64,000 nt of DNA from an uncultured Bacteroidia bacterium (GCA_938006875.1 CALLMJ010000055.1:918-64917), one strand, 5' to 3'; counted from the first letter of the stretch, positions 2-30,176 are shown. Notes: generated by a model not told the origin, from the sequence alone. Numbers and translations: made by a program.

Positions 2-3000
2 ATACAAGTAAAAAAAGAGTATGATATTTCATTTATATCCAATATTCAAGATGCAGGTGATTGTTATGAAATCGTAGAAAAACTAGGAGAAAATTATAAA
101 TTATCCACTTTAACGGTTGTACCAGAACAAGAATTAGACTACAGGGCAGAAGCCATTAAGATGCTTCGTAAAGCTAAAATGACAATAGTTTTCTTTAAGG
201 AAAGTTCTGATTGGGCTTTAGCATTTGTGAAACAAGTTTGGAAATTATCAGGTGGCGCTTCAAATAACACCCCAATATTACTAATTGGTGAAGATGAGCC
301 TAGAAGAAATCGATTTATAAGATTTAAAGCTCCCCAGTTGCTGCTTTCAGTATTAAAGAAAGATGAAATTTATTCCAAAATATTAGAAGTTTACAACAAA
401 GTAAGTGTTTCTGGTAAAATTATTGAAGAAACTTTTTCTCCTTACACTGGTTTAAGACCATTCAATGAAAATGAATCTATCTATTTCAAAGGAAGAGATA
501 AGCATATTGACTCTGTCATTCAAATGTTAGAGAGTAATAAGTATGTAATGGTTACGGGTGCTTCTGGCGACGGTAAATCCTCTTTGATTTATGCAGGTGT
601 AATTCCCAATGCAAAAGCTGGTTTTTTAAAAGGTTTATTTACAAAATGGACTGTCGTTGATTTTAAACCAGAAAGAACTCCTTTAAGAAATTTGGCTGCC
701 GCACTATCGCAAGGTTTAAGATTAAAAAATGTGGACGATGTAGAACTTCAGTTGGGATATGGTTTTTCTGCATTAGTGGATATTTATAAAAAATCTGATG
801 CCTATTGTGATATGACTTCTATAGAATGGGCTGATGCAGATGAAGAAACTCGTCGTTCTATGAAAAGAAAGGCATCAAATCTTTTAATTCTTGTTGACCA
901 ATCTGAAGAGTTTTTTACTAATTCAGAAAATTATAGAGATGGTGTAGCTTCTCCTGTATCTCAAATTACTATTAATGTTTTACAGGAGACCATTAAATTA
1001 GCAAGAGAAGAACAACTTCCTATTTATGTGGTTTTTACTATGCGTTCCGATTATATTGGTCAATGTGTTGCATTTAGAGGATTTGCTGAACTAATTGGGA
1101 ATTCTACTTACTTTGTTCCAAGATTAAAACGTGAAGAAATTCAAGAAGTAATCCAAGCTCCAGCTATATTAAATGGCGATAAAATTTCTTTAAGATTAAC
1201 TCAAAGGATTTTGAATGATTTGGGTGATGGAATTGACCAATTGCCTGTTCTACAGCATGCATTGTATCAGATGTGGAAAGAAGCTAATTACAAAAAAGAA
1301 GAAATTGATATTATTCATTATGCTAAAGTAGGTGGTATTGCTATTAACAAACTTCCCGCATCAATTCAACCAGAGTTTGAAATTTTTCTTAATCATTTAC
1401 CTGAAGAAAAAAAGTATCTTTTTGAAAAACCTCGCTTAAGAAACGTTCTTAGTAAACATGCTAATGAACTTTTTGAAACCGCTCATGAAATTTACAATCA
1501 AAGATACCAAGATAATATTTCTAAAGAACAAGCTCAAAGAATAATTAAAATTACTTTTACATGTTTGACCAAAATTGATGAAAACCGTGCGGTCAGAAAT
1601 CGTATGAGTTTAATGGAAATTTACGCAATTTATGGTTCCAATGAAATTACTATGGAAAAATTTGTTAAAGTAATTAACATTTTCCGTGAAACAGGCAATT
1701 CTTTTATTCAACCATTTATTACCGATGATGAGGCATCTAAAGAACTTTCTCCTGATACAGTTCTAGATATTACCCATGAATCATTAATTAGAAACTGGGA
1801 TTTACTCGTTGAATGGGCAGAAGAAGAACATAAATCGGTTTCAATTTTCCGTGATTTTAAGGTACAAGTTAATCAATGGCTAGAAAATGAAAAAGACCCC
1901 AAATATCTACTAAATTCTGGTCTTTATACTTATTTTAGTAATTGGTGGGAAAAAGCTAGTCCAAATGCTTCTTGGATTTTGAGATACATGAATCCAGAGG
2001 AAATCAATCCTATTATGGAGCCTGCTGAACAAGCTGAAATTTACCATGAAGACTGTGAAGAATTTTTATTTTTATCAAAACAAAAAATTGATAGAAATAG
2101 GAGATTAGTTTTATTTGCTATTTCTTTGATTTCTACACTTTTGGTTGTATCTTTAATTGCTGCTTGGATGGCATTACAGTCTAAGTATGAAGCTGACCAA
2201 CAACGTGAAATTGCTATTGAAAAATCAGAATATGCAGAAATACAAAGAGATTTAGCTATAAAAAAAGAAAAAGAGGCTGAATTTCAAAGAATGGTAACAG
2301 AAACAGAAAAATTAAAAGCTGAAACTCAAGCTATTATTGCAGAAAATCAGAAAAAAATTGCGGAAGGAGAAAAAATCAAAGCTGAGGAGCAACGTAAAAT
2401 TGCAGAAAACCAGAAAAAAATTGCAGAAAATGAGCGTAAAATAGCTGAGCAACAAAGAAAAATTGCAGAAGAAAACGAAAAAGAAGCTAAAAAACAAACT
2501 AAAATTGCAGAAGAAAAAACCAAATTAGCTCTTGAAAAAGAAGAAGAAGCAAGAAAACAAGCTGAAATTGCTAAAAAACAACGTAATAATGCACTAATTA
2601 CCCAGTCTTTATTCTTGGCTTCTCAAGCTGAACAACAAGTTGATGAAAATAGACCCGATATTGGTATTTTATTAGCAAGAGAAGCCTTACCCAAAAATTT
2701 AGAGGATCCGGATAGACCTTATGTTGAAGAAGCTGAAGCGGCTTTATACTATTCCATCAATAAAATTGCTAACAAAGACCCTTTATTAACTTTAAATGGT
2801 CATAAAAATAAAATGATTTATAATTTGTTTTCTCCTGATGGAAAGCGTTTAGTATCAACTTCTTGGGATAAAACTGCACGTTTATGGGATGTTGAAACAG
2901 GTCGTCAATTGGGTATTTTACAGGGTCATAATCATATTGTTGAAGCGGCTAAATTTTCAAAAGATGGTAAAACGCTTGCGACTCTTGCTGATGACTTTAC

Positions 3001-4186
3001 TGCTCGCTTATGGGACTTCCAAAGATTTAATTTGGTGGCTGTTTTTAGAGGTCATAAAAATACTTTAACCTCCGTGGATATTAGTAACGATGGCAAAAAG
3101 GTTGCTACATCTTCTATTGACAAAACTGCCAGAATTTGGGACTCTGCTTCTGGTGATGTCCAATTTATTTTAGAAGGTCATACAGGGCATGTACTTTACA
3201 CTGCATTTAGTAATAATTCAGACTTATTAATTACTACCTCCGCAGACTCTACCTCTAAATTATGGGATGTGAAATCAGGTAAACTGATAAATACATTAGT
3301 TGGGCATCAAGGTGCCGTAAAGTACGCAACATTTAGCCCTGATGATAAGTACATTGCTACGGTCTCAAAAGATTTTACTTGTAGATTATGGGACGGTAAA
3401 ACGGGTAAATTTATTAAAACTTTTAAAGGGCATTTAGATGTCGTAAACCATGTAGCTTTTAGTCATAATGGTGCTTTAATTGTTACTTCTAGTAAAGATT
3501 CTACTGCAAAAGTTTGGAATGTTGCAAGCGGTGAACAAGTTGGAAATTTAAAAGGTCATTTAGATAATGTTTATAAGGCATCATTTAGTCCTGATGATAA
3601 AAGAATTGTAACTAATTCAGATGATAAATCTGCAAGACTTTGGGATGGTAAATCCTTTTTAAGGTTAGCAGTATTTAAGGGTTCTCCTGGGCTTGGCTAT
3701 GCTTGTGCTTTTAGTCCTGATTCAAAAAGAATGGCTATGGCAGGTCCTCATTTTTCTATTGAAATTTATAGAATATTTCCTAACCTTCAAGAATTAATTG
3801 ATTACTCTGAAAATTTTGCTAATCGTCCTTTAACTGATGAAGAGAAAAAACGTTTCTTTGTTTCGGATTTTAGAGTTCGTAAGGAAATAGTAGATGAAAT
3901 TAAAAAGAATGAAAACTACCAAAACAATTTAGATAAATTCGACCTTAAAAATGCACCTCAAAATATTGAATTAAACGAAAAAAAAGAAATTAAACCTAAT
4001 GAAAATAAAAATTCTTCAACATCTGATGTGAAAACGAATATAAAACCTTCTTTTTATACTGTAAGACCTAATCAGACTTTGTCTGAAATTGCAAAAAAAT
4101 TTAACGTTACTGAACAATACTTAATGCAAATTAATAATTTGGATAATCCTAAAATTGAAGCTGGGCAAATTTTAAAAATTAAGTAA
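2..4186 (+). CDS. STAND (nSTAND/NACHT-like) P-loop NTPase with TIR-like N-terminus, one TM helix, coiled coil, WD40 propeller and C-terminal LysM; 5' end lies outside the window
   Basis: Frame 2 has no stop from nt 2 to the ATG at 161, so the gene starts upstream of the window. The read-through N-terminus (KEYDISFIS...AKMTIVFFKESSDWA...PILLIGEDEP) has an alternating beta/alpha, TIR-like pattern. NTPase motifs: PYTGLRPF...YFKGRD, Walker A GASGDGKS (557-580), Walker B LILVDQSEEFF. Hydrophobic helix LVLFAISLISTLLVVSLIAAWMAL (2105-2176). K/E/Q coiled coil (about 2185-2610). Eight GH...(L/I)WD units (2798-3777). LysM YTVRPNQTLSEIAKKF...GQILKIK (4055-4183). Confidence 0.8.
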   Translation: MQVKKEYDISFISNIQDAGDCYEIVEKLGENYKLSTLTVVPEQELDYRAEAIKMLRKAKMTIVFFKESSDWALAFVKQVWKLSGGASNNTPILLIGEDEPRRNRFIRFKAPQLLLSVLKKDEIYSKILEVYNKVSVSGKIIEETFSPYTGLRPFNENESIYFKGRDKHIDSVIQMLESNKYVMVTGASGDGKSSLIYAGVIPNAKAGFLKGLFTKWTVVDFKPERTPLRNLAAALSQGLRLKNVDDVELQLGYGFSALVDIYKKSDAYCDMTSIEWADADEETRRSMKRKASNLLILVDQSEEFFTNSENYRDGVASPVSQITINVLQETIKLAREEQLPIYVVFTMRSDYIGQCVAFRGFAELIGNSTYFVPRLKREEIQEVIQAPAILNGDKISLRLTQRILNDLGDGIDQLPVLQHALYQMWKEANYKKEEIDIIHYAKVGGIAINKLPASIQPEFEIFLNHLPEEKKYLFEKPRLRNVLSKHANELFETAHEIYNQRYQDNISKEQAQRIIKITFTCLTKIDENRAVRNRMSLMEIYAIYGSNEITMEKFVKVINIFRETGNSFIQPFITDDEASKELSPDTVLDITHESLIRNWDLLVEWAEEEHKSVSIFRDFKVQVNQWLENEKDPKYLLNSGLYTYFSNWWEKASPNASWILRYMNPEEINPIMEPAEQAEIYHEDCEEFLFLSKQKIDRNRRLVLFAISLISTLLVVSLIAAWMALQSKYEADQQREIAIEKSEYAEIQRDLAIKKEKEAEFQRMVTETEKLKAETQAIIAENQKKIAEGEKIKAEEQRKIAENQKKIAENERKIAEQQRKIAEENEKEAKKQTKIAEEKTKLALEKEEEARKQAEIAKKQRNNALITQSLFLASQAEQQVDENRPDIGILLAREALPKNLEDPDRPYVEEAEAALYYSINKIANKDPLLTLNGHKNKMIYNLFSPDGKRLVSTSWDKTARLWDVETGRQLGILQGHNHIVEAAKFSKDGKTLATLADDFTARLWDFQRFNLVAVFRGHKNTLTSVDISNDGKKVATSSIDKTARIWDSASGDVQFILEGHTGHVLYTAFSNNSDLLITTSADSTSKLWDVKSGKLINTLVGHQGAVKYATFSPDDKYIATVSKDFTCRLWDGKTGKFIKTFKGHLDVVNHVAFSHNGALIVTSSKDSTAKVWNVASGEQVGNLKGHLDNVYKASFSPDDKRIVTNSDDKSARLWDGKSFLRLAVFKGSPGLGYACAFSPDSKRMAMAGPHFSIEIYRIFPNLQELIDYSENFANRPLTDEEKKRFFVSDFRVRKEIVDEIKKNENYQNNLDKFDLKNAPQNIELNEKKEIKPNENKNSSTSDVKTNIKPSFYTVRPNQTLSEIAKKFNVTEQYLMQINNLDNPKIEAGQILKIK

Positions 4187-11542: not shown

Positions 11543-12685
11543 TTATTTACTGAGGAAAATGTAATATAGACCTACAGAAAATCTAAATTCTTGGTGTTTG
11601 GCTTCTAATTTTGAAATATTATTTAAAGCATATTGAGCATTCATTCTAAGCATAAATTGTTGATAATGTGATTGAAATGAAATACTTAATTGCGATCTTG
11701 TGGTTTTAAGTTCTTGTTTTTGTTCTTCATTTAAGAAAAAATATTCATAAACGAAGCCTGCAGCAAAAGACTGTCTATTCCATTGTAATCCAGTTTCTAA
11801 CGGGAAATGAAATGCCAATGGTTGTGATTTTTTATTATTCAAACTCAAATGACTTCCATAACTTATTTGTGGTAAAGTTTGTGCAAAAAGCAATGGACCA
11901 AATGGATATTGCATAAAACTGGAAATCCACTGTCTGAAATATAAATCTTCTTTTTGTGTATATTTACTTCCAAAAACTCCACCACCTAAACCGAAACTCC
12001 AATTCTTTTCAAAATAATTTTTTTTCTGATTTTTTTGAAGTTCTTTATTTATGAAAATTAATTCCTGTTTGCTTTCTAAGGCAATTAAATTTTTAGTATT
12101 AATCCATTCTAATTTTTTATTTAACTCATCAGCATTTTTAATGGGTATATAATTTTGAGCTTCTTTTTTTAAAGCTTTGTATATCAAAATAGTACGGCTA
12201 ATTGCTGATACTTTTTCACTTAATATTTGCAACTGGGCAGAACGTTTACGTTTATTAGGTTCACTATTAAATTGAATATGATTTTTCTGAGTATTGTTGC
12301 TAAATTTATTTTTAATTGTGTAATAATAATTTTCAACCTTTTGATTTTTAATTTTTTGATTAGTAATTTGTTGCTTTTTATGAGCAGTTTTATTATCCTC
12401 AAATGGATTTTCATAAGTAATATTTTCAAAAGTTTTTAAACTACCGGCCTTTTGAACAATATTAATTTTATGTTCAGGTTTATAAAAATGATATCCAAGA
12501 GTTATAAATAAGAGAATTAAAGCCAAGATTCCCATACCCCAAAACCAAAAGGAATTGTTTTTTTTGTGTTTTTGTGGAAGTTGTTTTTGGAGTTGTTCCC
12601 AGTATTTATCATCATAAGGGAACTCAAATTCCTCCACTTTTGATTTTAGAAATTTTACCCATTCATTATCATTCATGTAACTCAT
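11543..12685 (-). CDS. membrane protein in the anti-sigma position (one TM helix, low-complexity linker, beta-rich C-terminus)
   Basis: ATGA overlap with the upstream ECF sigma gene. Short cytoplasmic N-terminus, TM helix FWFWGMGILALILLFITLGYHFY, then an N/K/Q low-complexity region. The role is inferred from position only. Confidence 0.45.
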   Translation of the reverse strand: MSYMNDNEWVKFLKSKVEEFEFPYDDKYWEQLQKQLPQKHKKNNSFWFWGMGILALILLFITLGYHFYKPEHKINIVQKAGSLKTFENITYENPFEDNKTAHKKQQITNQKIKNQKVENYYYTIKNKFSNNTQKNHIQFNSEPNKRKRSAQLQILSEKVSAISRTILIYKALKKEAQNYIPIKNADELNKKLEWINTKNLIALESKQELIFINKELQKNQKKNYFEKNWSFGLGGGVFGSKYTQKEDLYFRQWISSFMQYPFGPLLFAQTLPQISYGSHLSLNNKKSQPLAFHFPLETGLQWNRQSFAAGFVYEYFFLNEEQKQELKTTRSQLSISFQSHYQQFMLRMNAQYALNNISKLEAKHQEFRFSVGLYYIFLSK

Positions 12686-13242
12686 ATGGCTTCTAAGTTA
12701 AAAAAAAAGGTTTTTAATTGTATTTTGAGCATATTTTTTACTTTATGTAAGTGCCACCTAGAATTTTCTTCTGAGATGCCTAATGTTTCGGCGATTTCTT
12801 TATGTGTAAACCCTTCAAAAACATGTAAGTTAAGAATGGTTTTACCCGGTTCAGGCAAATTTTGCAATAAATCCATAATTTCTTGGCTGGTTAATTCTTG
12901 ATTGGTAAAAGCATCTAAATGCTGATCTTTTAAAATATTTTCGTAATTATCTAAACATTCCATTCTTTTTCTCCATGATTTATCATTGTTTAAGTCATTT
13001 AGCACACTGTTTACAGTAATTTTTTTAGCCCAAGCATCAAAAGAAAATTCTGAATTATACAGTGGTAGTTTTTCTATAATCCTAAGAAAAGCATTATTCA
13101 AATAAATAACAGCATCATCTTTGCAAGTAGCATAACGATAGCATATTTTCATTAAAGGAGAAAATAAAAGTTTGTATAACTGATTAATCTTTTGTTGATT
13201 GCCAGCAATACATTCTTTTATGATTTCATTAGGAATATTCAT
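12682..13242 (-). CDS. RNA polymerase sigma-70 family ECF sigma factor
   Basis: Region 2-like segment (CYRYATCKDDAV...FLRIIEKL) and a region 4 HTH (FEGFTHKEIAETLGISEENSRWHLHKVKNMLK). Size is typical at 186 aa. Confidence 0.8.
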   Translation of the reverse strand: MNIPNEIIKECIAGNQQKINQLYKLLFSPLMKICYRYATCKDDAVIYLNNAFLRIIEKLPLYNSEFSFDAWAKKITVNSVLNDLNNDKSWRKRMECLDNYENILKDQHLDAFTNQELTSQEIMDLLQNLPEPGKTILNLHVFEGFTHKEIAETLGISEENSRWHLHKVKNMLKIQLKTFFFNLEAI

Positions 13243-13410: not shown

Positions 13411-15513
13411 ATGTTGAGAGCTTTAAAAAATCTTATCGCTGGTGTAGATGTAGATGAAATGAGATTACTTTCCATTATCGCTGAAAAAACAGATAATGCA
13501 GTAATTATTACTGATGAAAACGGTTTAATAATTTGGGCAAACCAAGCTTTTACGGATTTAACAGGATATACATTAGAAGAAGTAAAAAGGAAAAAACCTG
13601 GTCACGTGCTTCAAGGTAAAGATACAGACCCTGCAACGGTTCAACGTATTCGAGAATATATAGCAAGAAAACAATCGTTCAGAGAAAATATATTGAACTA
13701 TGACAAAGAGGGTACTCCTTACTGGATTCAACTTAACGTAACTCCTGTTTTCAACGATTTGGGTATCCTTACAAATTTTATTGCCTTTGAATTAGATGTT
13801 ACCGATGAAGTTAATAGACAGAAAGAATTAGAGCAAGCTAAAATACAAATTGAACAGCAACTTTCTCAAATTCAAGCTTATAATCAAGCTATCAATATTC
13901 GTTTGGGTTTTATGGAAATTGGTTTGGATAATAAAATAATTCAAATCAATGATAAATTAGCCAATCTTTTAGGTTATTCAAATCAAGAACTAATTGGTAA
14001 AAAACACAGAGATTTAGTAGGAAACTTGAAAACTGATGAGCAATATAAAAGGGATTGGGAAGAATTACTCAGAGAAGGTAAATTTGAAGGTGAAATTCAA
14101 CGATATAAGAAGAATGGTGAAGTAGTTTGGTTACAAGCTATATACATGGTTGTAAAAGATACTAAAACACAACAACCCAAATCTATAATAAAATTAGCGA
14201 TTGATATAACGGAAAAAAAACTTCAGGAAAAGGATTTATATGAAAAAAATCAAGAACTTTTAGCTTCCAAAGAAGAATTAAGAATGGCACAAGAAGAATT
14301 AAATGCCATTAATGAAGATTTAAAATCCAAAGCAGATGAATTAGAATCTAACTTAAAAGCTTTACAAAATGCTCAAGAGCAACTTCGTTCTCTTTCTTTA
14401 GTTGCTTCTAATACAGATAATGCTGTTATTATTACCAATGCAAACCAAGAAATTGAGTGGGTTAACCCTGGTTTCACGAGAATTTCTGGTTATACTTTAG
14501 AGGAAGTAAAAGGAAAAATTCCAGGTAGGATTCTTCAAGGTAAAGATACAGACCCTCAAACGGTTCAAAGGATACGTGAAAAACTTTTATTGAAAACGTC
14601 TTTTCAAGAAGAAATTCTTAACTATTCAAAAGATGGTCGTCCTTACTGGTTAAGTTTAAGCATCACACCTATTTTAAATGAAGTGGGAGATGTAAGTAAA
14701 TTTATAGCTATTGAAATGGACGTCACCGAAAAAAAAGAAAAAGAAAAGCTAATCAATGAAAGAAATAAAGATTTTGAGAATAGTTTGAAATATGCAAAAA
14801 CTATTCAAAAAGCTTTGCTTCCTGATTCTGATGTATTAAAAACTTATTGTAATGATTATTTCATTTATTTCCAACCCAAAGATGAAATTGGAGGGGATTT
14901 TTATTGGTTCCAAAAATATCAAGAGGTTTTATATGTAGTTACTGCTGATTGTACAGGGCATGGAGTACCTGGTGCATTGTTATCTATGTACTTCCAACAA
15001 TATTTGAATACGCTTGCAATTCAATATGCTCATGCTACATTAGACGAAAAATTAAAGGCTCTGCAAGAAGGTATTCTTAAACTTCAAAATGATCAAGGTA
15101 TTCAAGATGCTTTTGAAATGAGCATGGCAATGATCGATAAAGAAAAAATACATTTATTTACAACTTCCGCTCAACCTATCATCATTCAAAAATCTGATAA
15201 TCAAATAGAAATTTTAAAATCTGATAATTATCTTGGTAAACATCCCTTAAAGAATGGAAACTATTCATTGGATTTTTTTGTTATTTATAAAGTTCAAGTT
15301 AAAAGATTGTTCTTAATGTCTGATGGTATGATTGACCAATTCGGTGGACCCGATAATAAAAAGTTTGGGCTCACAAGATTAAAATCCTTATTAGCTACAA
15401 ACATTGAAAATAACCTCTCTCAAACCATCAAAGAATTAAAGTTTTCTTTAAATACTTGGTTCAATGGTCAAGAACAAACCGACGACTTTTTAATGATTGG
15501 ATTGGATTTATAA
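13411..15513 (+). CDS. LOV-like PAS / PAS / coiled coil / LOV-like PAS / PP2C (SpoIIE, RsbU-type) phosphatase, paralog 1
   Basis: PAS1 and PAS3 carry ...GYTLEEVK..PG(H/R)(V/I)LQGKDTDP.TVQRIRE...ILNY.K(E/D)G.PYW...(E/M)(L/M)DVT. The C-terminus has GGDFYWF...TADCTGHGVPGALLSM...MSDGMIDQFGG...EQTDDFLMIG, which are PP2C/SpoIIE motifs. Confidence 0.8.
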   Translation: MLRALKNLIAGVDVDEMRLLSIIAEKTDNAVIITDENGLIIWANQAFTDLTGYTLEEVKRKKPGHVLQGKDTDPATVQRIREYIARKQSFRENILNYDKEGTPYWIQLNVTPVFNDLGILTNFIAFELDVTDEVNRQKELEQAKIQIEQQLSQIQAYNQAINIRLGFMEIGLDNKIIQINDKLANLLGYSNQELIGKKHRDLVGNLKTDEQYKRDWEELLREGKFEGEIQRYKKNGEVVWLQAIYMVVKDTKTQQPKSIIKLAIDITEKKLQEKDLYEKNQELLASKEELRMAQEELNAINEDLKSKADELESNLKALQNAQEQLRSLSLVASNTDNAVIITNANQEIEWVNPGFTRISGYTLEEVKGKIPGRILQGKDTDPQTVQRIREKLLLKTSFQEEILNYSKDGRPYWLSLSITPILNEVGDVSKFIAIEMDVTEKKEKEKLINERNKDFENSLKYAKTIQKALLPDSDVLKTYCNDYFIYFQPKDEIGGDFYWFQKYQEVLYVVTADCTGHGVPGALLSMYFQQYLNTLAIQYAHATLDEKLKALQEGILKLQNDQGIQDAFEMSMAMIDKEKIHLFTTSAQPIIIQKSDNQIEILKSDNYLGKHPLKNGNYSLDFFVIYKVQVKRLFLMSDGMIDQFGGPDNKKFGLTRLKSLLATNIENNLSQTIKELKFSLNTWFNGQEQTDDFLMIGLDL

Positions 15514-15517
15514 TCAT

Positions 15518-15566
15518 ATATAACCCAATTAACAAAGCAAGTTTAATCGTTTCATATGTAATGAGG
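15518..15566 (+). repeat. 49-nt conserved 3' flank, copy 1 (copy 2 at 17752-17800)
   Basis: ATATAACCCAATTAACAAAGCAAGTTTAATCGTTTCATATGTAATGAGG matches the copy at 17752-17800 at 47 of 49 positions in my manual alignment. Confidence 0.85.
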
Positions 15567-15595
15567 TTGCGAATTTTTTCGCAATCTTTTTTTTT
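15567..15595 (+). terminator. intrinsic terminator after PP2C paralog 1
   Basis: TTGCGAA-tttt-TTCGCAA gives a 7-bp perfect stem (15567-15584), followed by a T-run (tcttttttttt). Confidence 0.6.
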
Positions 15596-15601
15596 ATTTT
15601 T

Positions 15602-15632
15602 TTGTAAAATAGAATTCATAATAATAAATTTG
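15602..15632 (+). promoter_or_regulatory. putative Bacteroidota sigma-A promoter for PP2C paralog 2
   Basis: TTG (15602-15604), 20 nt, then TAAATTTG (15625-15632, TAnnTTTG). The box ends 27 nt upstream of the ATG. Confidence 0.35.
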
Positions 15633-15659
15633 CATGTAATTTATAAAATATAAAATGAC

Positions 15660-17750
15660 ATGCTAAAAGCCTTTAAAAATTTTTTTTATACTAATAATAA
15701 CCACATCCATGTCAATGAAGAAAAATTATTTTCCATTATAATTGAAAAATCGGACAATGTGGTTATTATAACTGATGCTAACGGAATGATAATTTCGGTT
15801 AATCAGGCTTTTACCGATTTAACTGGTTTTAGTTTTGATGAAATAAAAGGCAATAAATTTTGGAATTTATTACAAAACCAAGCTACAGATATTGATGCAT
15901 TAGGAAGTATTCTTGAAAAGCTGACCCGAAAAGAATCCTTTAGAGAGATAGTTTTGAATTATGATAAAGAAGGGATCCCTTATTGGATGCAAATCAATGT
16001 AAATCCTGTACTGGATGACAAAGGAGAACTTTCAAATTTTGTTATTTTAGGTTTAGATGTTACTGAGCAGATAATCAACCAACAAAAATTTGAACACCAA
16101 CTTGCTCAATTACAAGCCTATAATGAAGCCATCAATATGCGTATGGGTTTTATTGAATTTGATTTGAATAGGAATATTTTGCAAGTAAATGAAAAGTTAG
16201 CTACTTTATTAGGATATACGCCTCAAGATTTGCTTGGAAAAAACCATAGAGAATTAGTAGGGGACTTGATGACGGACGAATCGTATGAAGGTTTCTGGAA
16301 TACGCTAATAAAGGAAGGTAAAGCCGAAGGTGAATTTCAAAGAAAACATAGAAATGGGCAAATAATATGGCTACAAGCAGTTTATATGTTAGTGAAAGAT
16401 ATAAATCACCAACCTAAATCGGTAATCAAATTAGCGATTGATATTACAGAACGCAAAAAGCAAGAACAAGAACTCTATGAAAAAAATGAAGAGCTTTTAG
16501 CTTCTGATGAAGAATTGAGAATGGCTCAAGAAGAGCTTAATGTTATTAATGAAGATTTAAAACTTAAAGCGGAAGCTTTAGAGAAAAGCTTAAAAAATAT
16601 TCGCACTGCGCAGGAACAACTTCGTTTACTTTCTATGGTTTCTACAAAAACGGACAATGCAGTAATCATTACCAATGCAAATAGAGAAATTGAGTGGGTA
16701 AATCCTGGTTTCACGAGAATTTCTGGTTATACTTTAGAAGAAGTAAAAGGGAAAGTTCCTGGTAGAATTCTTCAAGGTAAAGATACTGACCCTCAAACGG
16801 TTCAAAGAATACGTGAACAACTCCAATTAAAAACATCATTCCAAGAAGAAATTTTGGATTATAGAAAAGACGGTAAACCATACTGGATTAATCTCAATAT
16901 CACACCTATATTAAATGAATTAGGGGAAGTAGAGAAATATATTGCTATTGAAATGGATATTACCGAAAAAAAAGAAAAAGAAAAGCTAATCAACGAAAGA
17001 AATAAAGATTTGGAAGATAGTTTAAAATACGCCAAAACTATACAAAAAGCTTTGCTTCCTGATATGGGTATATTAAAAACTGGCTGTAAAGATTCATTCA
17101 TTTATTTCCAACCTAAAGAAGAAATTGGAGGAGATTTTTATTGGTTCAAGAAGAATGGAGAGGTTTTATACGTGGTTGCGGCAGACTGTACGGGGCATGG
17201 TGTCCCAGGTGCTTTACTATCTATTTACTTCCTGCAATATTTTAATAACATTACCACACAATATGCTAATGCAACATTCCATGAAAAATTGAATTCACTT
17301 CAAGAAGGGATTTTAAAACTTCAAAATGAACAAAGTATTCAAGATGCTTTTGAATTGAGTATGGCAATGATAGAAACTGACAGAATTCATTTATTTACTA
17401 CCACCGCTCAGCCCATTATTATTCAAAAAACTAACCATCAAATTGAAATCTTAAAATCTGATAACTATCTAGGAAAACATCCTTTAAGAAAAGAAAATAA
17501 ACCTTTTGAATTTTACGAATTTGATAAAAAAGAAATTCAAAGATTATTTCTTATGTCTGATGGAATTATAGACCAATTCGGTGGACCAGATAATAAAAAG
17601 TTTGGATTACCACGTTTAAAATCTATAATTACTGCTAATGTTGAAGAGAGTTTATCTCAAAGTTTTAAAGAAATAAAATTTTCTTTGAATACTTGGTTCA
17701 ATGGTCAAGAACAAACCGATGATTTTTTAATGATTGGATTGGATTTTTGA
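15660..17750 (+). CDS. PAS / PAS / coiled coil / LOV-like PAS / PP2C phosphatase, paralog 2 (tandem duplicate)
   Basis: Same architecture as the preceding gene. The C-terminal roughly 370 aa are near-identical (for example NPGFTRISGYTLEEVKGK.PGRILQGKDTDPQTVQRIRE), while the N-terminal PAS is much more diverged. Confidence 0.8.
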   Translation: MLKAFKNFFYTNNNHIHVNEEKLFSIIIEKSDNVVIITDANGMIISVNQAFTDLTGFSFDEIKGNKFWNLLQNQATDIDALGSILEKLTRKESFREIVLNYDKEGIPYWMQINVNPVLDDKGELSNFVILGLDVTEQIINQQKFEHQLAQLQAYNEAINMRMGFIEFDLNRNILQVNEKLATLLGYTPQDLLGKNHRELVGDLMTDESYEGFWNTLIKEGKAEGEFQRKHRNGQIIWLQAVYMLVKDINHQPKSVIKLAIDITERKKQEQELYEKNEELLASDEELRMAQEELNVINEDLKLKAEALEKSLKNIRTAQEQLRLLSMVSTKTDNAVIITNANREIEWVNPGFTRISGYTLEEVKGKVPGRILQGKDTDPQTVQRIREQLQLKTSFQEEILDYRKDGKPYWINLNITPILNELGEVEKYIAIEMDITEKKEKEKLINERNKDLEDSLKYAKTIQKALLPDMGILKTGCKDSFIYFQPKEEIGGDFYWFKKNGEVLYVVAADCTGHGVPGALLSIYFLQYFNNITTQYANATFHEKLNSLQEGILKLQNEQSIQDAFELSMAMIETDRIHLFTTTAQPIIIQKTNHQIEILKSDNYLGKHPLRKENKPFEFYEFDKKEIQRLFLMSDGIIDQFGGPDNKKFGLPRLKSIITANVEESLSQSFKEIKFSLNTWFNGQEQTDDFLMIGLDF

Positions 17751-21046: not shown

Positions 21047-22003
21047 TTAAAAATAATTGTTGATATTTATGTTTAGCATTTCTTCAATATCTTTATCCGA
21101 AAATTCTTTATTTCTTAAAGTTTCAATCATATTTCTAATACGTTGTTTTTCATTCATAAGCATAATATTTTTCTCATCGGCTCGTTTTTTTTCTTCATCG
21201 GCTCGTTTTTTTTCTTCATCGGCTCGTTTTTTTTCTTCATCGGTTCGTTTTTTTTCTTCAATCAGTCTTATTTGTAATTCTTCATAAGATTCTTCTCTTA
21301 TTCTTAATTCATCTAAAAAATCATCCTCAATATCCATTAATTTTCTGGTTTCTGTATCTTGGGATATTTTTAGCAAACGTTTTAACAAACTATAATGGCT
21401 AACAGGAAAGTCTTTTTCATCAAATTCAATAAAACGCATCATTGCTACATCAAAAATGCTTAATATTTTTTCTAAATCGGTTTTTTTACCTTTTTTCTTT
21501 TTAATAGCAGGTATTTGAATAACAATAGCATCATGAGTAATTCCTTCAATAAATGGTTCTTTGTCTTTTAATATTTCTTGAGTTCCATGAACCAAATATT
21601 GCCTTTTTACTCGTATAATAGGTATATTTTCATGTACCTGCAAATGATGACCCAATAAATAAATCGTAATTATGGGAATAGGAACATTTCCATTCATGTT
21701 ATCTTTATTAGCATATTGATTGCCTATATACCTTCTAAAGCGAAAATTTTGATTATAAAACTTAATTTTCTGTAATTCTATTAATACAATTAAATGTGAA
21801 TTCTCTTCAATTTTAATTTTTGCTTTGAAATCTACACGATAAATAGAAAATAAATCTACTTCACTAAGATATTCATGAGGCTTAAACTCTAATTCTAAAA
21901 CCTCCATTTCTAAAATGGCTGAAATTAGAAGTTTAGCAGATTCTAAATCTTGCATCAATCCTTTAAAAACTACATCATAAAGTGGATTGGCTATGTAAAT
22001 CAT
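21047..22003 (-). CDS. PD-(D/E)XK nuclease, Rpn / PDDEXK_2 family (putative transposase-like), with repeat-encoded K/E tail
   Basis: The N-terminus IANPLYDVVFKGLM..., YRVDFKAKIKI and LIVLIELQK (D...E.Q/K core) are typical of the Rpn/PDDEXK_2 family. The C-terminal DEEKKRA x4 is encoded by a 21-bp tandem repeat. Confidence 0.65.
   Translation of the reverse strand: MIYIANPLYDVVFKGLMQDLESAKLLISAILEMEVLELEFKPHEYLSEVDLFSIYRVDFKAKIKIEENSHLIVLIELQKIKFYNQNFRFRRYIGNQYANKDNMNGNVPIPIITIYLLGHHLQVHENIPIIRVKRQYLVHGTQEILKDKEPFIEGITHDAIVIQIPAIKKKKGKKTDLEKILSIFDVAMMRFIEFDEKDFPVSHYSLLKRLLKISQDTETRKLMDIEDDFLDELRIREESYEELQIRLIEEKKRTDEEKKRADEEKKRADEEKKRADEKNIMLMNEKQRIRNMIETLRNKEFSDKDIEEMLNININNYF
21174..21257. 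repeat. 21-bp tandem repeat x4 (in-frame, encodes DEEKKRA x4 on the minus strand)
   Basis: TCATCGGCTCGTTTTTTTTCT occurs at 21174, 21195, 21216 and 21237. The fourth copy has one C>T change. Confidence 0.9.
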
Positions 22004-24402: not shown

Positions 24403-24894
24403 ATGAAATACACGATAGATAAATTACCAAGCTATGCATTGGTAAAATTAGAAGAAAAAAAAGTGGATACTAGAATCTCTCCCGAACTAAAACAACTTTT
24501 TGTTTTAATGAATACAGAAGGTATTAATAACATTATATTGGATTTATCCTCAACTGATTATATTGACTCCTCTGGATTAAGTTCTATTTTGGTTGCTAAC
24601 AGATTATGCAATAACTCTAATGGTTATTTGGTTTTAACAGGTTTAAATCCGAATGTAAGCAAAATGTTAGAAATCTCTCAATTGATTGATAAGCTCAATA
24701 TTGCTGATACTGTTGATGATGCAATAGAAGCTATTCATTTGGCTGAAATTGAAAATTTTGATGAAAATTTCAATATTAATGATTTTGATGATGATGATTT
24801 TGATGATGATGATTTTGAAACCGTTGAGATTGACGATAATTTTGATATAGATTTTGAAGAGGATAATCTTGATGATTTTTATAGAGGAATTTGA
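24403..24894 (+). CDS. STAS-domain anti-sigma-factor antagonist (SpoIIAA/RsbV-like) with poly-acidic tail
   Basis: LDLSSTDYIDSSGLSSIL contains the DSSGL phospho-serine motif of SpoIIAA-type STAS proteins. The last roughly 45 aa are D/E/F/N only. Confidence 0.75.
   Translation: MKYTIDKLPSYALVKLEEKKVDTRISPELKQLFVLMNTEGINNIILDLSSTDYIDSSGLSSILVANRLCNNSNGYLVLTGLNPNVSKMLEISQLIDKLNIADTVDDAIEAIHLAEIENFDENFNINDFDDDDFDDDDFETVEIDDNFDIDFEEDNLDDFYRGI
24781..24810. repeat. 15-bp tandem repeat x2 (encodes DFDDD DFDDD)
   Basis: GATTTTGATGATGAT at 24781-24795 and 24796-24810, followed by GATTTTGAA. Confidence 0.85.
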
Positions 24895-26440: not shown

Positions 26441-26448
26441 TATTTTTG
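26441..26448 (+). promoter_or_regulatory. -7 box TATTTTTG upstream of the 26467 gene
   Basis: Exact TAnnTTTG match ending 18 nt before ATG 26467. I saw no clear -33 TTG. Confidence 0.3.
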
Positions 26449-26466
26449 CAAAAAATCAAAATATTC

Positions 26467-27966
26467 ATGGAAAACTTGCCGGATTTAGTAGAAAATTTAG
26501 AAAAAAACGAAAAAACTCAATTTAAAAAATATCTATCTCTACACTCAGAAAAAGACAGTAAATATCTTCAACTCTTTGAATTAGTTGAAAAAAAACCAGA
26601 AATTACCAATGAAGAAGCCATGAAAAAATTATACGGCAAAAGCACAAAATCCTATTTTATGCTAAAAAGCCGATTAGTAGATAAAATATTAGATTTTCTA
26701 ACCCTAGATAACAATCTTGAAATTGACGATGAACGCCTCACGGTAAGTTATCAATCCATTATTTTACGTAAAAAATTTATAAAAGCTCAAATTTTATGGG
26801 AAAGGGGCATTAGAAGTGATATTCTTGAAGAAATTTTATTAGAAATTTTAGAACAAACTTTAGATATTTATGCTCATGATATTGCTTTAGAAGCTGCTTT
26901 ATATCTTAGAAGAATCAATTTTAATTATCAAAGCAAAGGAAAAAATATTAACGATATTATCAATGAATTACGTAAAGCTTATAATGCAGAAATTTTAGCG
27001 GGTGAAGTTTTTTCTTTTTATGCTCAAAATGCAGAAAAATTATCATCAGTTCAAGAAATTAAAAATCATTTTGATAGGCTTATGCCCGAACTCCATCAAG
27101 CTATTCAAGGTGTCAATAGCCCAAGAGCTGAATGGATTTATTTCTATACCGTTTCAGAGGAACAAAGAGTAAGCCACCAATTTAAAAATGCTTATGAAAG
27201 CATAATGAAATGTATTCAAATTGCAGAACAACACCCCAAAGTGGTTTCTCATCTACAGTTTGGGAATTTTTATTACCGTAAAGCCGTAATTCTATATCAA
27301 AATTTACAATTAGAAGAAGCGAAAATAGATTTCCAAAAAGCATTTAATTTATATCCTGCCAAAAGAATGAATTCCTACATCGTCAAAAAATATTTGGCCA
27401 TCATAGAACTTTTACAAGGAAATCTCCAAATTGCAAAACAAATTTTACAAGAACTCATAAACCCTGAATCCGAAAAAATGATGCCTTATCATACCAACCT
27501 TTGTAAAATTTACTTGGCAGTAGCTTATTTCATGGAAAAAGATTACAAAAAAGCTTGGTTTATTTTACCTGAATTAGATTTTCTTTTAGAAGATAAGGGC
27601 GGTTTTCATGGTTTTATTAGAATTTTAGAATTAATTTTACTCATTGAAAAAGAAGATTTTGAAATGGTCAATTTAAAATTGGATAGTTTTAGAAAATATT
27701 TAAAAAAATACAACCAAAACCATGACTATTTTAATTTGGTTTATCAAGTTTTTAATAAATTAAATGGAATTTCCTATGATTATAAAGCATTTAAAAAAGA
27801 TGATTTATTTCAAATGTTATCCAATAGTTACTGGGACCCCTTAGATTATGAACCTATTCAATTGTATTCTTGGCTCTTAAGCAAACAAATTCAAAAAGAC
27901 TATTTTACTGTATGGAAGGATACCTTAAAAACCTTATCAGAACAAAAGAGAACTTTATTTTTCTGA
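26467..27966 (+). CDS. hypothetical helical-repeat (TPR-like) protein; distant paralog of 46995-48389
   Basis: All-alpha, K/E/L-rich, with several TPR-like A...Y...A pairs. I start it at ATG 26467 because the track's TTG at 26446 lies inside a TATTTTTG -7 box. Confidence 0.5.
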   Translation: MENLPDLVENLEKNEKTQFKKYLSLHSEKDSKYLQLFELVEKKPEITNEEAMKKLYGKSTKSYFMLKSRLVDKILDFLTLDNNLEIDDERLTVSYQSIILRKKFIKAQILWERGIRSDILEEILLEILEQTLDIYAHDIALEAALYLRRINFNYQSKGKNINDIINELRKAYNAEILAGEVFSFYAQNAEKLSSVQEIKNHFDRLMPELHQAIQGVNSPRAEWIYFYTVSEEQRVSHQFKNAYESIMKCIQIAEQHPKVVSHLQFGNFYYRKAVILYQNLQLEEAKIDFQKAFNLYPAKRMNSYIVKKYLAIIELLQGNLQIAKQILQELINPESEKMMPYHTNLCKIYLAVAYFMEKDYKKAWFILPELDFLLEDKGGFHGFIRILELILLIEKEDFEMVNLKLDSFRKYLKKYNQNHDYFNLVYQVFNKLNGISYDYKAFKKDDLFQMLSNSYWDPLDYEPIQLYSWLLSKQIQKDYFTVWKDTLKTLSEQKRTLFF

Positions 27967-30176
27967 CCTCTTTTTACCTTGTCTCTGCTTTATTTGCTTT
28001 TCTTATCATAAAAAATGTAGGAAAACCTAGTATTTTGCCAGTTTTAGAAAATACGATTTTAATTCCATCTGATGATGGTTTAGTATGGAAAAATACTCAT
28101 AAAGGTCTTGTTTTACAAGAAATTCATAATCCTTATGTAAATCAATTAGAAATTGGAGATATTCTCATCAAAATTGACCAACAACCTATTTTTTTTACAG
28201 AATCTTTAACTGAAATTTTAAAAAGTTTACCGCCAGGAAGTGTAATGATGTACCAAGTAAAAAGACCTTCTGCTAACAATGATTTGATACAAGTTTTAGT
28301 ACGAACCTACCCTAAAGTCATTTTCAAGCCAGAAACTAATCTTTTTCAGTGGATATATCAAATATTGAATTTAGCCTGTTTATTTTCAGGAATTTTCTTG
28401 TCCCTTTTAGTATATCCTTTCATTAATAGAGGAATTGAATCCCTTAAACTTTACATATTCGTAATTTTTACCATTTTATTTAACCTTTTGTATCTTCTTT
28501 TAGATTTTCAACCTACCATTTACCAAGAAAATACCGAAATTTATTTCAATTATTTAGGCTGGATTTTTTCTGTATTATTTTTATTAGCAGCAGCATTTTC
28601 TTTACGATGGAAATCTTTTTATTGGGATCTACCGTTAGACATTTTATTATCATTTGTGATTTTATATTTTGTAATTTTACAAAAGAATTTAATCTCTTAT
28701 CAAAATGAAATCTTAATTCTTACCTCAGTAATTTTTGTAAAATCCTTATGGTTAAATCTTCATTATGAAAATAATCATAATCCTATCATACACTCTGGAA
28801 TCACAAGCATATGTATTCTAGGACTTATTTTTTTCCCTAATGATTATACATTTACTTTTTTATGGATTTACTTACTGGCATTTAAAATCTATTGGATTTA
28901 CCGTTATCTAAAAATTAGTAAAGTAAATTTAGTTGCTCAACAATTCATACTCATCATAGTTCTTGTTGCAGTATTTAGTATTAGTTACTCATTATCAGGG
29001 TTAGTTTCTAAACAGTTTCCTTATGATTTTCAGAACATTATTAAAATTATTTTAAGTTTAACAGTGAGTTTATTGGTCGTTTATGTTTTATTTATAAACA
29101 AAAATTGGTGGAAAAAATGGCTTTTTTTTTCATTTGAAAACCGTGTAGAAAAACTCCAAAAATTTCAAATTTCTATGACTAACTACCTTCACAAAGAACA
29201 ACTATTACAAGATTTTCATAAAGAAATTGATGATTTTTTAGGTGAAGTTAAGTTGGAAATTTATTTAGAAATTGATGAAAAAAACCCTTATTATTCCTTA
29301 TTACCTTATTTAAATTCCAACACCTTCTGGTCAAAATCAAAAGAATTGATTAAAAATCCTATCAATATACCTGAAAATTTGACTCCCATAATAGATTCCG
29401 ATATAGAATTAATATTCCCTTTGATATTCTCTAACGAAAAAAAAGGGCTCGTTTTAATTGGTAAGAAAAAAGATGGATATTACAACTTAGAAGAAGCTGA
29501 AATTTTACAAAGAACTATTATTCAATTATCCTTGATAATCAATCTTTTAAGTTTATTAGAAAAAGAAAAACTTTTAATGCAAAAAACCTTAGAAGCAAAC
29601 CTAACTGCATTGCGTTCTCAAATCAACCCACATTTTTTGTTCAATACTTTAAATACCATTTCTTCCTTAATTCATGATTCACCTGATTTAGCAGAAGAAG
29701 CCGTAGAACATTTAGCATTTATTTTTAGATATACTTTAAAAACCTCCAACGAACAATTTGCTACATTAAAAGATGAAATGCAACTTATTCAGCATTATTT
29801 GGATATTGAAAAAATACGATTTGGAAAAAGATTAAATATAGAAATTCAAATTGAAGAATGTTGCTTGGAATATTTAATTCCGTCATTAGTCATACAAACC
29901 CTCGTAGAAAACTGCATTAAACATGGTATCAGTAAACTCACAAAAGATGGTATCATCAAAATACAATTTTACAAAGAAAACCATTTTTTAACGGGGATTA
30001 TTTATGATAACGGACCAGGAATAAAAATGGAAAACATCTATAAAGGTACGGGTCTTAGCAATATTCTAACCCGTTTAGATCAAATTTATGAAAAAAAGCA
30101 TGAAATACATTTAGAAAATACAGGAAATGGAACCCAAATAACCATCAAAATACCCATCCATACAATACTTATTTGA
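27912..30176 (+). CDS. membrane sensor histidine kinase, LytS/YehU type, with N-terminal PDZ-like domain
   Basis: LRSQINPHFLFNTLNTISSLI (His_kinase PF06580-type H box) and an HATPase (ENCIKHG...DNGPGI...GTGLSNILTRL). About 8 TM helices. The extracytoplasmic segment EIGDILIKIDQQPI...PPGSVMMYQVKR is PDZ-like. The start is uncertain: ATG 27912 overlaps the upstream gene by 55 nt. Confidence 0.75.
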   Translation: MEGYLKNLIRTKENFIFLTSFYLVSALFAFLIIKNVGKPSILPVLENTILIPSDDGLVWKNTHKGLVLQEIHNPYVNQLEIGDILIKIDQQPIFFTESLTEILKSLPPGSVMMYQVKRPSANNDLIQVLVRTYPKVIFKPETNLFQWIYQILNLACLFSGIFLSLLVYPFINRGIESLKLYIFVIFTILFNLLYLLLDFQPTIYQENTEIYFNYLGWIFSVLFLLAAAFSLRWKSFYWDLPLDILLSFVILYFVILQKNLISYQNEILILTSVIFVKSLWLNLHYENNHNPIIHSGITSICILGLIFFPNDYTFTFLWIYLLAFKIYWIYRYLKISKVNLVAQQFILIIVLVAVFSISYSLSGLVSKQFPYDFQNIIKIILSLTVSLLVVYVLFINKNWWKKWLFFSFENRVEKLQKFQISMTNYLHKEQLLQDFHKEIDDFLGEVKLEIYLEIDEKNPYYSLLPYLNSNTFWSKSKELIKNPINIPENLTPIIDSDIELIFPLIFSNEKKGLVLIGKKKDGYYNLEEAEILQRTIIQLSLIINLLSLLEKEKLLMQKTLEANLTALRSQINPHFLFNTLNTISSLIHDSPDLAEEAVEHLAFIFRYTLKTSNEQFATLKDEMQLIQHYLDIEKIRFGKRLNIEIQIEECCLEYLIPSLVIQTLVENCIKHGISKLTKDGIIKIQFYKENHFLTGIIYDNGPGIKMENIYKGTGLSNILTRLDQIYEKKHEIHLENTGNGTQITIKIPIHTILI

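Follow-up and report, generated by a model that had tools for sequence, protein, structure and literature searches.

Few photoreceptors have been studied as thoroughly as LOV domains, which have a central place in optogenetics; in bacterial LOV surveys, LOV-SpoIIE phosphatases are a known photoreceptor architecture (PMC4844311). RsbP of B. subtilis has the layout PAS-coiled coil-PPM (PMC3183031). Domains of the LOV type may also lack the cysteine that forms the flavin adduct: Cys-less LOV* domains (BAT-LOV and others) have flavin bound and respond to chemical reduction or photoreduction (PMC4682037), and in the LOV cluster of a large PAS survey only 57% of members had the Cys, the rest being left unexplained (PMC10468136). 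Here we consider a stretch of 64 000 nucleotides (‘the window’) from an uncultured Bacteroidia bacterium (GCA_938006875.1 CALLMJ010000055.1:918-64917), where two tandem genes on the + strand, paralog 1 (13411–15513; 700 amino acids) and paralog 2 (15660–17750; 696 amino acids), code for PP2C phosphatases with LOV-like PAS domains.

A preliminary description of this locus, made from the sequence, read these domains as cysteine-less LOV sensors or as LOV-derived domains re-tasked to another ligand. We found that they belong to a large, previously uncharacterised PAS clade, for which we use the name KPG clade, taken from the motif G[KR]xPGxxLQGxxTD. Published LOV censuses filter on the Cys and on 8–10 conserved residues, therefore the KPG clade has been excluded from them by construction. 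What is new here is a discrete, conserved and phylum-spanning sister clade of LOV, in which half of the flavin-contact set is kept and the reactive edge is rebuilt.

LOV-like PAS domains and the KPG clade

Three domains in the window carry the KPG motif in full: PAS1 of paralog 1 (13453–13851, amino acids 15–147; KRKKPGHVLQG, YWI and FIAFELD), PAS3 of paralog 1 (14377–14730, amino acids 323–440; GKIPGRILQG, ILNYSKDGRPYWL and FIAIEMD) and PAS3 of paralog 2 (16614–16967, amino acids 319–436; GKVPGRILQG, ILDYRKDGKPYWI and YIAIEMD), all on the + strand. PAS1 was assigned by PDB matches, tree and alignment, PAS3 of paralog 1 by PDB matches, AlphaFold2 and Foldseek, and PAS3 of paralog 2 by alignment and motif coordinates. 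In a phmmer search all top PDB sequence matches of the two paralog 1 domains were LOV domains: CagFbFP (E 3.8e-24 for PAS3 and 1.3e-21 for PAS1), YtvA (7e-20), phototropins and Brucella LOV-HK, with E values from 1e-24 to 1e-14 overall. The best NCBIfam families were YtvA_fam and blue-light histidine kinase, both under the full-length cutoffs. An AlphaFold2 model of PAS3 of paralog 1, built on 44 clade sequences, had a mean confidence (predicted local distance difference test, pLDDT) of 92.7 and showed A'α and Jα-type helices; compared by Foldseek with LOV structures it gave a template-modelling (TM) score of 0.92 and a root mean square deviation of 1.0–1.3 Å. By sequence and by predicted fold PAS1 and PAS3 are the nearest relatives of LOV, and the LOV similarity seen in the preliminary description is borne out.

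The changes with respect to LOV are concentrated around the reactive part of the flavin site (residue numbers follow YtvA unless stated; N482 and R451 of AsLOV2 are N94 and R63). At the site of the adduct Cys the domains read GKIPGRILQ, GKVPGRILQ and RKKPGHVLQ, with PGRILQG at 14521–14541 and 16758–16778 and PGHVLQG at 13597–13617; the Cys is thus replaced by Gly preceded by an inserted Pro. Residue 104 is L or I and residue 123 is E in all three domains. The replacements of the Cys, of the Asn in FWN (to Leu or Ile) and of the Iβ Gln (to Glu) were already listed in the preliminary description, and on translation all its quoted motifs proved exact in position; what it had presented as substitutions goes beyond a point change, as the loss of the Cys is accompanied by a one-residue insertion and the 2–3-residue hairpin insertion of LOV is missing. 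Its statement that the Arg, Gln, Arg and Asn contacts are retained in PAS3 holds for paralog 1; in PAS3 of paralog 2 the equivalent of Asn94/N482 is Asp (ILDY, 16851–16886). As a family feature the retention is only partial, because the Arg63 site is variable and often acidic in the clade. In PAS1 of paralog 1 the Arg following the Cys site (R63/R451) is His, and Gly59 is Arg. Further motifs in the PAS3 region of paralog 1 are ILNYSKDGRPYW (14614–14649) and FIAIEMDVTEKKEKEKL (14701–14751).

The fourth LOV-like domain, PAS1 of paralog 2 (15714–16112, +, amino acids 19–151), is a degenerate copy recognised by alignment and by the clade profile. Within GNKFWNLLQN (FWNLLQN at 15858–15878) the Pro-Gly pair has become Phe-Trp and LQG has become LQN; elsewhere Leu has replaced Arg79, and Gly the Iβ Glu. 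On the clade profile it reaches 123 bits, short of the 180–200 bits of typical members. The same degenerate state is found in the ortholog P0007 of a related metagenome-assembled genome (MAG). Judging from these residues the domain is decayed and probably without ligand now, yet it has been kept; the preliminary description was right to leave it out of its list of LOV-like domains.

To define the clade we took a sample of 174 homologous domains out of the 120 best database proteins. The Pro inserted before the Cys site was present in 168 of 174 domains, and the Cys62 site was Gly in 154 of 173. The Asn104 site was L, I or V in 167 of 173 domains, the Gly121 site was Ala or Ser, and the Gln123 site was mostly Glu (101) or Gln (56). 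The Arg63 site varied (D 32, R 29, H 28, E 22, S 18, K 14). On the other hand, Gln66 (155/173), Arg79 (141/173) and Asn94 (163/173) were kept; also conserved were Tyr95, Lys97, Trp103, LQGxxTD, hydrophobic residues at pocket positions 28, 65, 75, 78, 82, 92, 106, 108 and 119, and the Tyr of YW beside the pocket (146/173). The Aβ-Bβ hairpin is 2–3 residues shorter than in LOV and equal in length to that of MmoS. Thus, the set of residues that faces the N5/C4a/O4 edge, where the flavin reacts, is a rebuilt one: Cys to Gly plus Pro, Asn104 to Leu, Ile or Val, Gly121 to Ala or Ser, Gln123 to Glu or Gln. With the adduct Cys replaced by Gly and the reactive edge rebuilt, the residues make a Cys-flavin photoadduct, the defining step of LOV signalling, impossible in KPG domains.

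A domain was counted as KPG if it had the motif, a hydrophobic residue at 104, E or Q at 123, the short hairpin and about 160 bits or more on the clade profile (alignment A1). PAS1 and PAS3 of paralog 1 and PAS3 of paralog 2 had all of these features; PAS1 of paralog 2 was a degenerate member. Nearly all domains with at least 160 bits had PGxxLQG; canonical NCRFLQG LOV domains, some of them in the same proteins, had 44–112 bits. Searched against PDB, the clade profile reached at best 115 bits, with canonical LOV domains only, against 64.7 bits for the flavin adenine dinucleotide (FAD)-binding MmoS PAS-A, and found no PDB entry that belongs to the clade. By this comparison, too, LOV is the nearest known relative of the clade.

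In a neighbor-joining tree (132 columns, 200 bootstraps) the KPG domains, among them the window's two PAS1 and two PAS3, grouped as a monophyletic clade in 85% of bootstraps, and canonical LOV did so in 84.5%; the union of the two, together with a few insertion-less GKNPRVLQG intermediates, was recovered in 98%. The PAS2 domains of the window and classical NPRILKSG PAS domains fell outside this union. Since each group is monophyletic and their union is recovered, the tree places the KPG clade as sister to LOV, not nested in it; derivation from LOV, one of the options of the preliminary description, is therefore not shown. Its other option, cysteine-less LOV, is right in that the adduct Cys is missing, and falls short in that the domains form a discrete phylum-spanning clade with indels and residues of its own.

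Assignment to described families gave the following picture. The published filter for natural Cys-less LOV-like domains required at least nine of 10 conserved residues (PMC4682037). Of the nine listed (G59, N61, R63, F64, L65, Q66, N94, N104, Q123), five were present in PAS3 of paralog 1, four in PAS3 of paralog 2 and three in PAS1 of paralog 1; membership of the published LOV* set was rejected by this count of 3–5 of nine. A true LOV photoreceptor was rejected as well: there is no Cys, and Asn104 and Gln123 are gone. In FAD-type PAS domains a conserved Trp on Fα is the primary FAD determinant (PMC10468136); the Fα position in KPG is Arg (RIRE), the Hβ Trp being the only conserved Trp, and an FAD-type PAS of the NifL/MmoS/Aer kind was rejected for the lack of the Fα Trp and for the profile scores given above. 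A heme, metal or Fe-S sensor was rejected too, the invariant and near-invariant columns of the clade having no conserved His, Cys or Met. With 3–5 of nine LOV residues and no Fα Trp, the window domains thus belong by sequence neither to Cys-less LOV* nor to FAD-type PAS; they are members of the KPG clade.

The clade spans at least seven phyla. We found it in Bacteroidota, Alpha-, Beta- and Gammaproteobacteria, Chloroflexus, Planctomycetes, cyanobacteria and Syntrophobacteraceae, and also in groundwater MAGs. Its domains are fused to PP2C, histidine kinase, soluble chemoreceptor and GAF modules, with up to seven KPG domains in tandem within single proteins. At E≤1e-30 the clade profile retrieved 16 379 protein clusters (50% identity), a figure to be read as a maximum, since the scores of several PAS domains add up within one protein and proteins lacking the motif are included. 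A search of the literature for the KPG motif, or for LOV-like PP2C proteins of this type, found none.

Forms intermediate between LOV and KPG were seen among database proteins (P0155, P0253/P0232 and P0231). The GKSLGQYLQG form (P0155) has Asn104 and Gln123 intact; the GKNPRVLQG form has no insertion, yet has I at 104 and E at 123; the GKPCSILQG form is a Cys-containing LOV with Pro preceding the Cys. Such intermediates could be useful for reconstructing how the pocket was changed.

Flavin binding and the possible signal

The reading that we prefer, tentatively and with confidence a little short of even, is that the window KPG domains are adduct-incapable sensors of flavin type, responding to redox state or to photoreduction and driving a SiaA/RsbU-type phosphatase, with flavin binding predicted from residues and by analogy. 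For flavin binding taken by itself, we put the probability at a little over one half. The LOV-like pocket would still hold a flavin, most likely flavin mononucleotide (FMN), because the Fα residue is Arg and not the Trp typical of FAD-binding PAS domains. Reduction would protonate N5, either chemically, reporting the redox or energy state of the cell, or by photoreduction if the cell is lit; N5-H would be read by the Iβ Glu, by analogy with the Gln of LOV or with Glu70 of NifL. From strand Iβ the signal would pass to the highly conserved Jα-like helical linker and alter PP2C activity in a dimer, as in phosphatases of RsbP/RsbU type. The phosphatase would then dephosphorylate a phospho-STAS or SiaC-type partner-switching protein encoded elsewhere. 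The response to chemical reduction or photoreduction would be that of the Cys-less LOV* domains (PMC4682037).

Several observations count for a retained flavin. Gln66, Arg79 and Asn94, which in LOV read the pyrimidine ring and the phosphate of the flavin, are near-invariant across phyla. In KCNH PAS domains, members of the LOV cluster that have lost flavin, the equivalent polar residues became hydrophobic; Xing et al. named Arg, Cys and Asn as determinants of FMN binding, and two of these three are conserved in KPG (PMC10468136). Changes of the KPG kind at single sites have precedents among flavin binders: the FAD-binding MmoS PAS-A has Val at the Asn104 site, CagFbFP Q148E still binds FMN (PDB 6ywi; bioRxiv 10.1101/2021.02.05.429969) and BAT-LOV has flavin bound with Pro at the Cys site (PMC4682037). 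The KPG variants with Asn104 and Gln123 intact and those without the insertion point, as sequences, in the same direction. The decayed PAS1 of paralog 2, where Trp occupies the Gly site and both Arg79 and the Iβ Glu are lost, looks like abandonment of a cavity that once was occupied.

Other observations weigh against the preferred reading. Four to five polar flavin contacts of LOV are changed together, whereas LOV tolerates single substitutions. The clade has not conserved Arg63, the second Arg that binds phosphate: about one-third of its members have Asp or Glu there. Natural LOV receptors without Gln123 seldom carry a charged residue in its place (PMC9098866). Residues 63 and 123 covary: a basic residue at 63 goes with Glu123 in 62 of 71 domains, while with an acidic residue at 63 Gln123 is the commonest (28 of 59). 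The covariation may come from the two residues pairing inside an empty pocket, or simply from the presence of two subclades. The support for the clade comes from neighbor joining on 132 columns, and in PDB and the literature we found no KPG members with a solved structure or published biochemistry. As for the output, the phosphatase pair is separated from the STAS gene discussed below by 7 kb with four unrelated genes on the opposite strand and has no operon link to it; no RsbW-type (HATPase_c_2) kinase gene is present within the window. Partner-switching neighbours occur in a minority of loci, with a kinase gene near a few other orthologs and none in loci L083–L085.

One could suppose instead that KPG PAS domains never bound flavin, or no longer bind it, and that some other small molecule (a metabolite or a hydrophobic flavin-like heterocycle) in the LOV-shaped pocket regulates the PP2C domain; we consider this possible but on balance improbable. 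It would account for the replacement of the whole reactive-edge set (Asn61, Cys62, Asn104, Gly121, Gln123) and for a variable or acidic Arg63 site, as well as for the failure to pass the LOV-like residue filter (PMC4682037); the KCNH PAS domains provide a precedent of flavin loss in the LOV cluster (PMC10468136), and the occurrence of the clade in the strictly anaerobic Syntrophobacteraceae and in soluble chemoreceptors fits a ligand of another kind. However, the near-invariance of the flavin-reading Gln66, Arg79 and Asn94 is not what the flavin-less KCNH domains, with hydrophobic residues at these sites, would lead one to expect, and no conserved His, Cys, Met or aromatic residues hint at an alternative ligand. 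The same buried polar residues, together with E or Q at 123 and the Gly at the Cys site, are so strongly conserved across phyla that it is hard to hold that the LOV-like PAS domains are ligand-free, serving only as dimerisation or signal-relay modules with the true input in PAS2 or in a protein partner. To this explanation we give the smallest probability of those weighed here. Many PAS domains do work without cofactor, KPG domains occur in tandem arrays of up to seven per protein, PAS1 of paralog 2 is clearly decayed and still retained, and the covariation of 63 and 123 could be an internal salt bridge; PAS3, however, is the best conserved of the modules and is directly attached to the effector linker.

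If flavin is bound, light might be the physiological signal: the domains would then be genuine blue-light receptors in which the neutral semiquinone is formed by photoreduction with no Cys. Cys-less VVD, YF1 and BAT-LOV do signal via the semiquinone (PMC4682037), LOV-SpoIIE phosphatases offer a photoreceptor architecture to compare with (PMC4844311), and the conserved Tyr of YW beside the pocket could donate the electron. All the same, we find such a role very unlikely. In natural Cys-less LOVs the Gln and the two Asn residues are retained, which is not so in the window domains; no light-response genes (photolyase, carotenoid) are found nearby in the window; and the clade is present in the strictly anaerobic, non-phototrophic Syntrophobacteraceae and in groundwater MAGs. 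As the clade occurs in strict anaerobes, light is unlikely to be its general signal.

Extending the preferred reading from the window to the clade as a whole, one could speculate that KPG domains are a widespread new class of flavin sensors, sister to LOV or near the LOV ancestor, in which Cys-free N5 protonation read via the Iβ Glu or Gln informs phosphatases, kinases and chemoreceptors of redox state and, by way of photoreduction, of light; we regard this broader proposal as rather unlikely. The KPG clade bears directly on the proposal that LOV photoreceptors arose from redox-active flavoproteins. It bears also on what the pre-LOV sensor sensed and on whether the LOV scaffold can signal when Cys, Asn and Gln have given way to Gly, Leu and Glu.

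The phosphatase pair and its surroundings

Both open reading frames, and the observation as a whole, are as given in the preliminary description. The paralogs share 68% identity over their full length and have the same layout, PAS1-PAS2-coiled coil-PAS3-linker-PP2C; in each, the Pfam matches are three PAS domains followed by SpoIIE/PP2C at the C-terminus (in paralog 1, PAS_9 at 2.4e-55 in three stretches and SpoIIE at 7.9e-14). An exact-sequence look-up with paralog 1 gave no match. PAS2 of paralog 1 (13858–14214, +, amino acids 150–268; Pfam PAS_3 at amino acids 177–254) is of ordinary PAS_3 type and not LOV-like, in agreement with its position outside LOV plus KPG in the tree; PAS2 of paralog 2 (16113–16451, +; PAS_3 at amino acids 174–257) is of the same ordinary type. 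A coiled-coil-like helical connector follows PAS2 in paralog 1 (14215–14376, +, amino acids 269–322), read off the sequence as heptad-like and rich in E, K, L and Q; it is 70% identical between the paralogs. The Jα-like helical linker from PAS3 to PP2C (14731–14820, +, amino acids 441–470) corresponds to helix 117–132 of the AlphaFold2 model.

The PP2C/SpoIIE domains lie at 14821–15510 (paralog 1, +) and 17058–17747 (paralog 2, +) and score 52.5 and 53.3 bits, respectively, against SpoIIE PF07228 (cutoff 25). By inspection, both have the metal-binding acidic motifs IGGDFYW, ADCTGHGVPGA, LMSDG and QTDDF, so by sequence the PP2C catalytic set is intact in both. Matches of the paralog 1 domain to NCBIfam SiaA (1.7e-30) and, as the nearest solved PP2C, to SiaA of P. 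aeruginosa (6k4e, E 5.5e-21) add to the assignment. The RsbU/RsbP-type output proposed in the preliminary description agrees with a PP2C/SpoIIE domain directly downstream with all the metal motifs; its nearest solved relative is SiaA rather than RsbU or RsbP. The products are predicted to be two tandem-duplicated cytoplasmic serine phosphatases of the SpoIIE/SiaA/RsbU superfamily, probably transcribed separately. A terminator-like hairpin with a T-run lies between the genes (15563–15588, +, 11-bp stem; the consensus scan found four such hairpins in the region against 1.6 expected) and suggests separate transcription. Multi-PAS PP2C phosphatases are a common protein type, and for the organism itself the meaning of the pair is more ordinary: two extra sensory inputs to a PP2C phosphatase pathway.

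Identity between the paralogs differs by module, being highest in the linker (93%), then 83% in PAS3 and 53% in PAS1. We infer that PAS3 is the principal, constrained input of both phosphatases. At third codon positions, identity was 66–77% over PAS3 and linker (14377–14820 versus 16614–17057) and 48–61% elsewhere; this elevation could be due to gene conversion or to stronger constraint. The closest genomes are MAGs of uncultured Bacteroidia, with identities of 84% and 83%. In one of these relatives (locus L001, 12247–14796) the paralog 2 ortholog has 849 amino acids, with an extra classical PAS domain (GKNHRILKSG) between PAS2 and PAS3; thus the number of PAS domains in this gene pair is fluid.

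The STAS gene that the preliminary description had named as the antagonist 7 kb away is real: the region 24403–24894 (+) codes for an anti-sigma-factor-antagonist-like protein of 163 amino acids with a DSSGL phospho-site motif and a poly-acidic tail (Pfam STAS 7.9e-14; TIGR00377 54.5 bits, cutoff 53.45). Nothing ties it to the phosphatase pair, and as a substrate it is a conjectural candidate. The protein has 33% identity to the STAS protein encoded next to the ortholog pair in L001. Its 50 C-terminal residues are nearly all Asp, Glu, Phe, Asn and Ile (DDDDFDDDDFETVEIDDNFDIDFEEDNLDDF), which is unusual among anti-sigma antagonists. In L001 the genes directly after the ortholog pair (84% identity) encode an RsbW-like kinase, a STAS protein and one more SpoIIE phosphatase; this synteny supports a partner-switching role in general. 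The orthologs in L083–L085 lie among unrelated housekeeping genes.

The window itself appears to be ordinary chromosome of an AT-rich member of Bacteroidota, with type IX secretion genes, aminoacyl-tRNA synthetase genes, ribD and queA. Around the pair we saw genes for an extracytoplasmic function (ECF) sigma factor, a bicarbonate transporter, a glycosidase and UvrD, which give no clue to signal or substrate. The ECF sigma factor gene (12682–13242) and an overlapping gene for a 380-residue protein without Pfam match occupy 11543–13242 (−), divergent from paralog 1; the 380-residue protein is possibly an anti-sigma factor. The adjacency of sigma factor and paralog 1 is not conserved in L001, the closest relative. 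Elsewhere, 161–4186 codes for a 1341-residue protein with nSTAND1 (novel STAND NTPase) followed by WD40 propellers, an architecture typical of conflict and signalling NTPases; a 318-residue protein without Pfam match (21047–22003, −) has four C-terminal near-perfect copies of the repeat EEKKRAD. Two open reading frames at 26446–30176 (+), overlapping by about 100 nucleotides and both with TTG starts, carry TPR repeats and LytS-type His_kinase plus HATPase_c domains, respectively; a frameshift may have divided a single sensor kinase in two, or the starts may be mis-called.

Comparison with described sensors and phosphatases

Among canonical LOV domains (YtvA, phototropin LOV1/2, Chloroflexus aggregans Cagg_3753/CagFbFP and Brucella LOV-HK), CagFbFP has about 45% identity to the window domains. 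The two groups have in common A'α/Jα-type flanking helices, the LQGxxTD, IR, NYxKxG and W motifs, most hydrophobic pocket residues and Gln66, Arg79 and Asn94; as in canonical LOV, the window domain stands directly upstream of its effector and is joined to it by a helical linker. The window domains differ from LOV in having Gly, preceded by an extra Pro, where LOV has the adduct Cys, other residues at the sites of Asn61, Asn104, Gly121 and Gln123, no clade-wide conservation of Arg63 and an Aβ-Bβ hairpin shorter by 2–3 residues; in the tree the KPG domains stand apart as a clade of their own.

BAT-LOV, HsuLOV and Amb2291 of the LOV* set (Yee et al. 2015) are like the window domains in having no adduct Cys, BAT-LOV having Pro there. 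LOV* domains, so selected, keep nearly all other LOV residues including Gln123 and Asn104, whereas the window domains keep 3–5 of nine; the published LOV* sets are small (∼70 entries), while the KPG clade is large. With NifL PAS1, MmoS PAS-A and Aer/AerC the KPG domains share the short Aβ-Bβ hairpin, the absence of Cys and a hydrophobic 104 site (Val in MmoS). These proteins are dark redox sensors, a likeness to the role proposed for KPG; Glu70 of NifL, an acidic residue near flavin N5, acts as a redox relay. They differ from KPG in a weaker profile match (64.7 versus 115 bits), in the Trp on Fα, where KPG has Arg, and in having no LQG motif.

On the output side, RsbP, RsbU and SiaA have, like the window proteins, an N-terminal sensor followed by a helical linker and a PF07228 PP2C domain, and all of them are expected to act on a phosphorylated STAS or SiaC-type partner-switching protein. 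The window proteins differ from them in having three PAS domains, two of which are of the LOV-sister type, and the window has no RsbQ-like partner, kinase or adjacent substrate gene. SiaA is a membrane protein with an N-terminus different from that of the window proteins. The LOV-SpoIIE photoreceptors follow the same logic as the phosphatases described here, with a LOV-type PAS directly upstream of SpoIIE/PP2C; theirs is a canonical LOV with the Cys, here it is a domain of the KPG clade.

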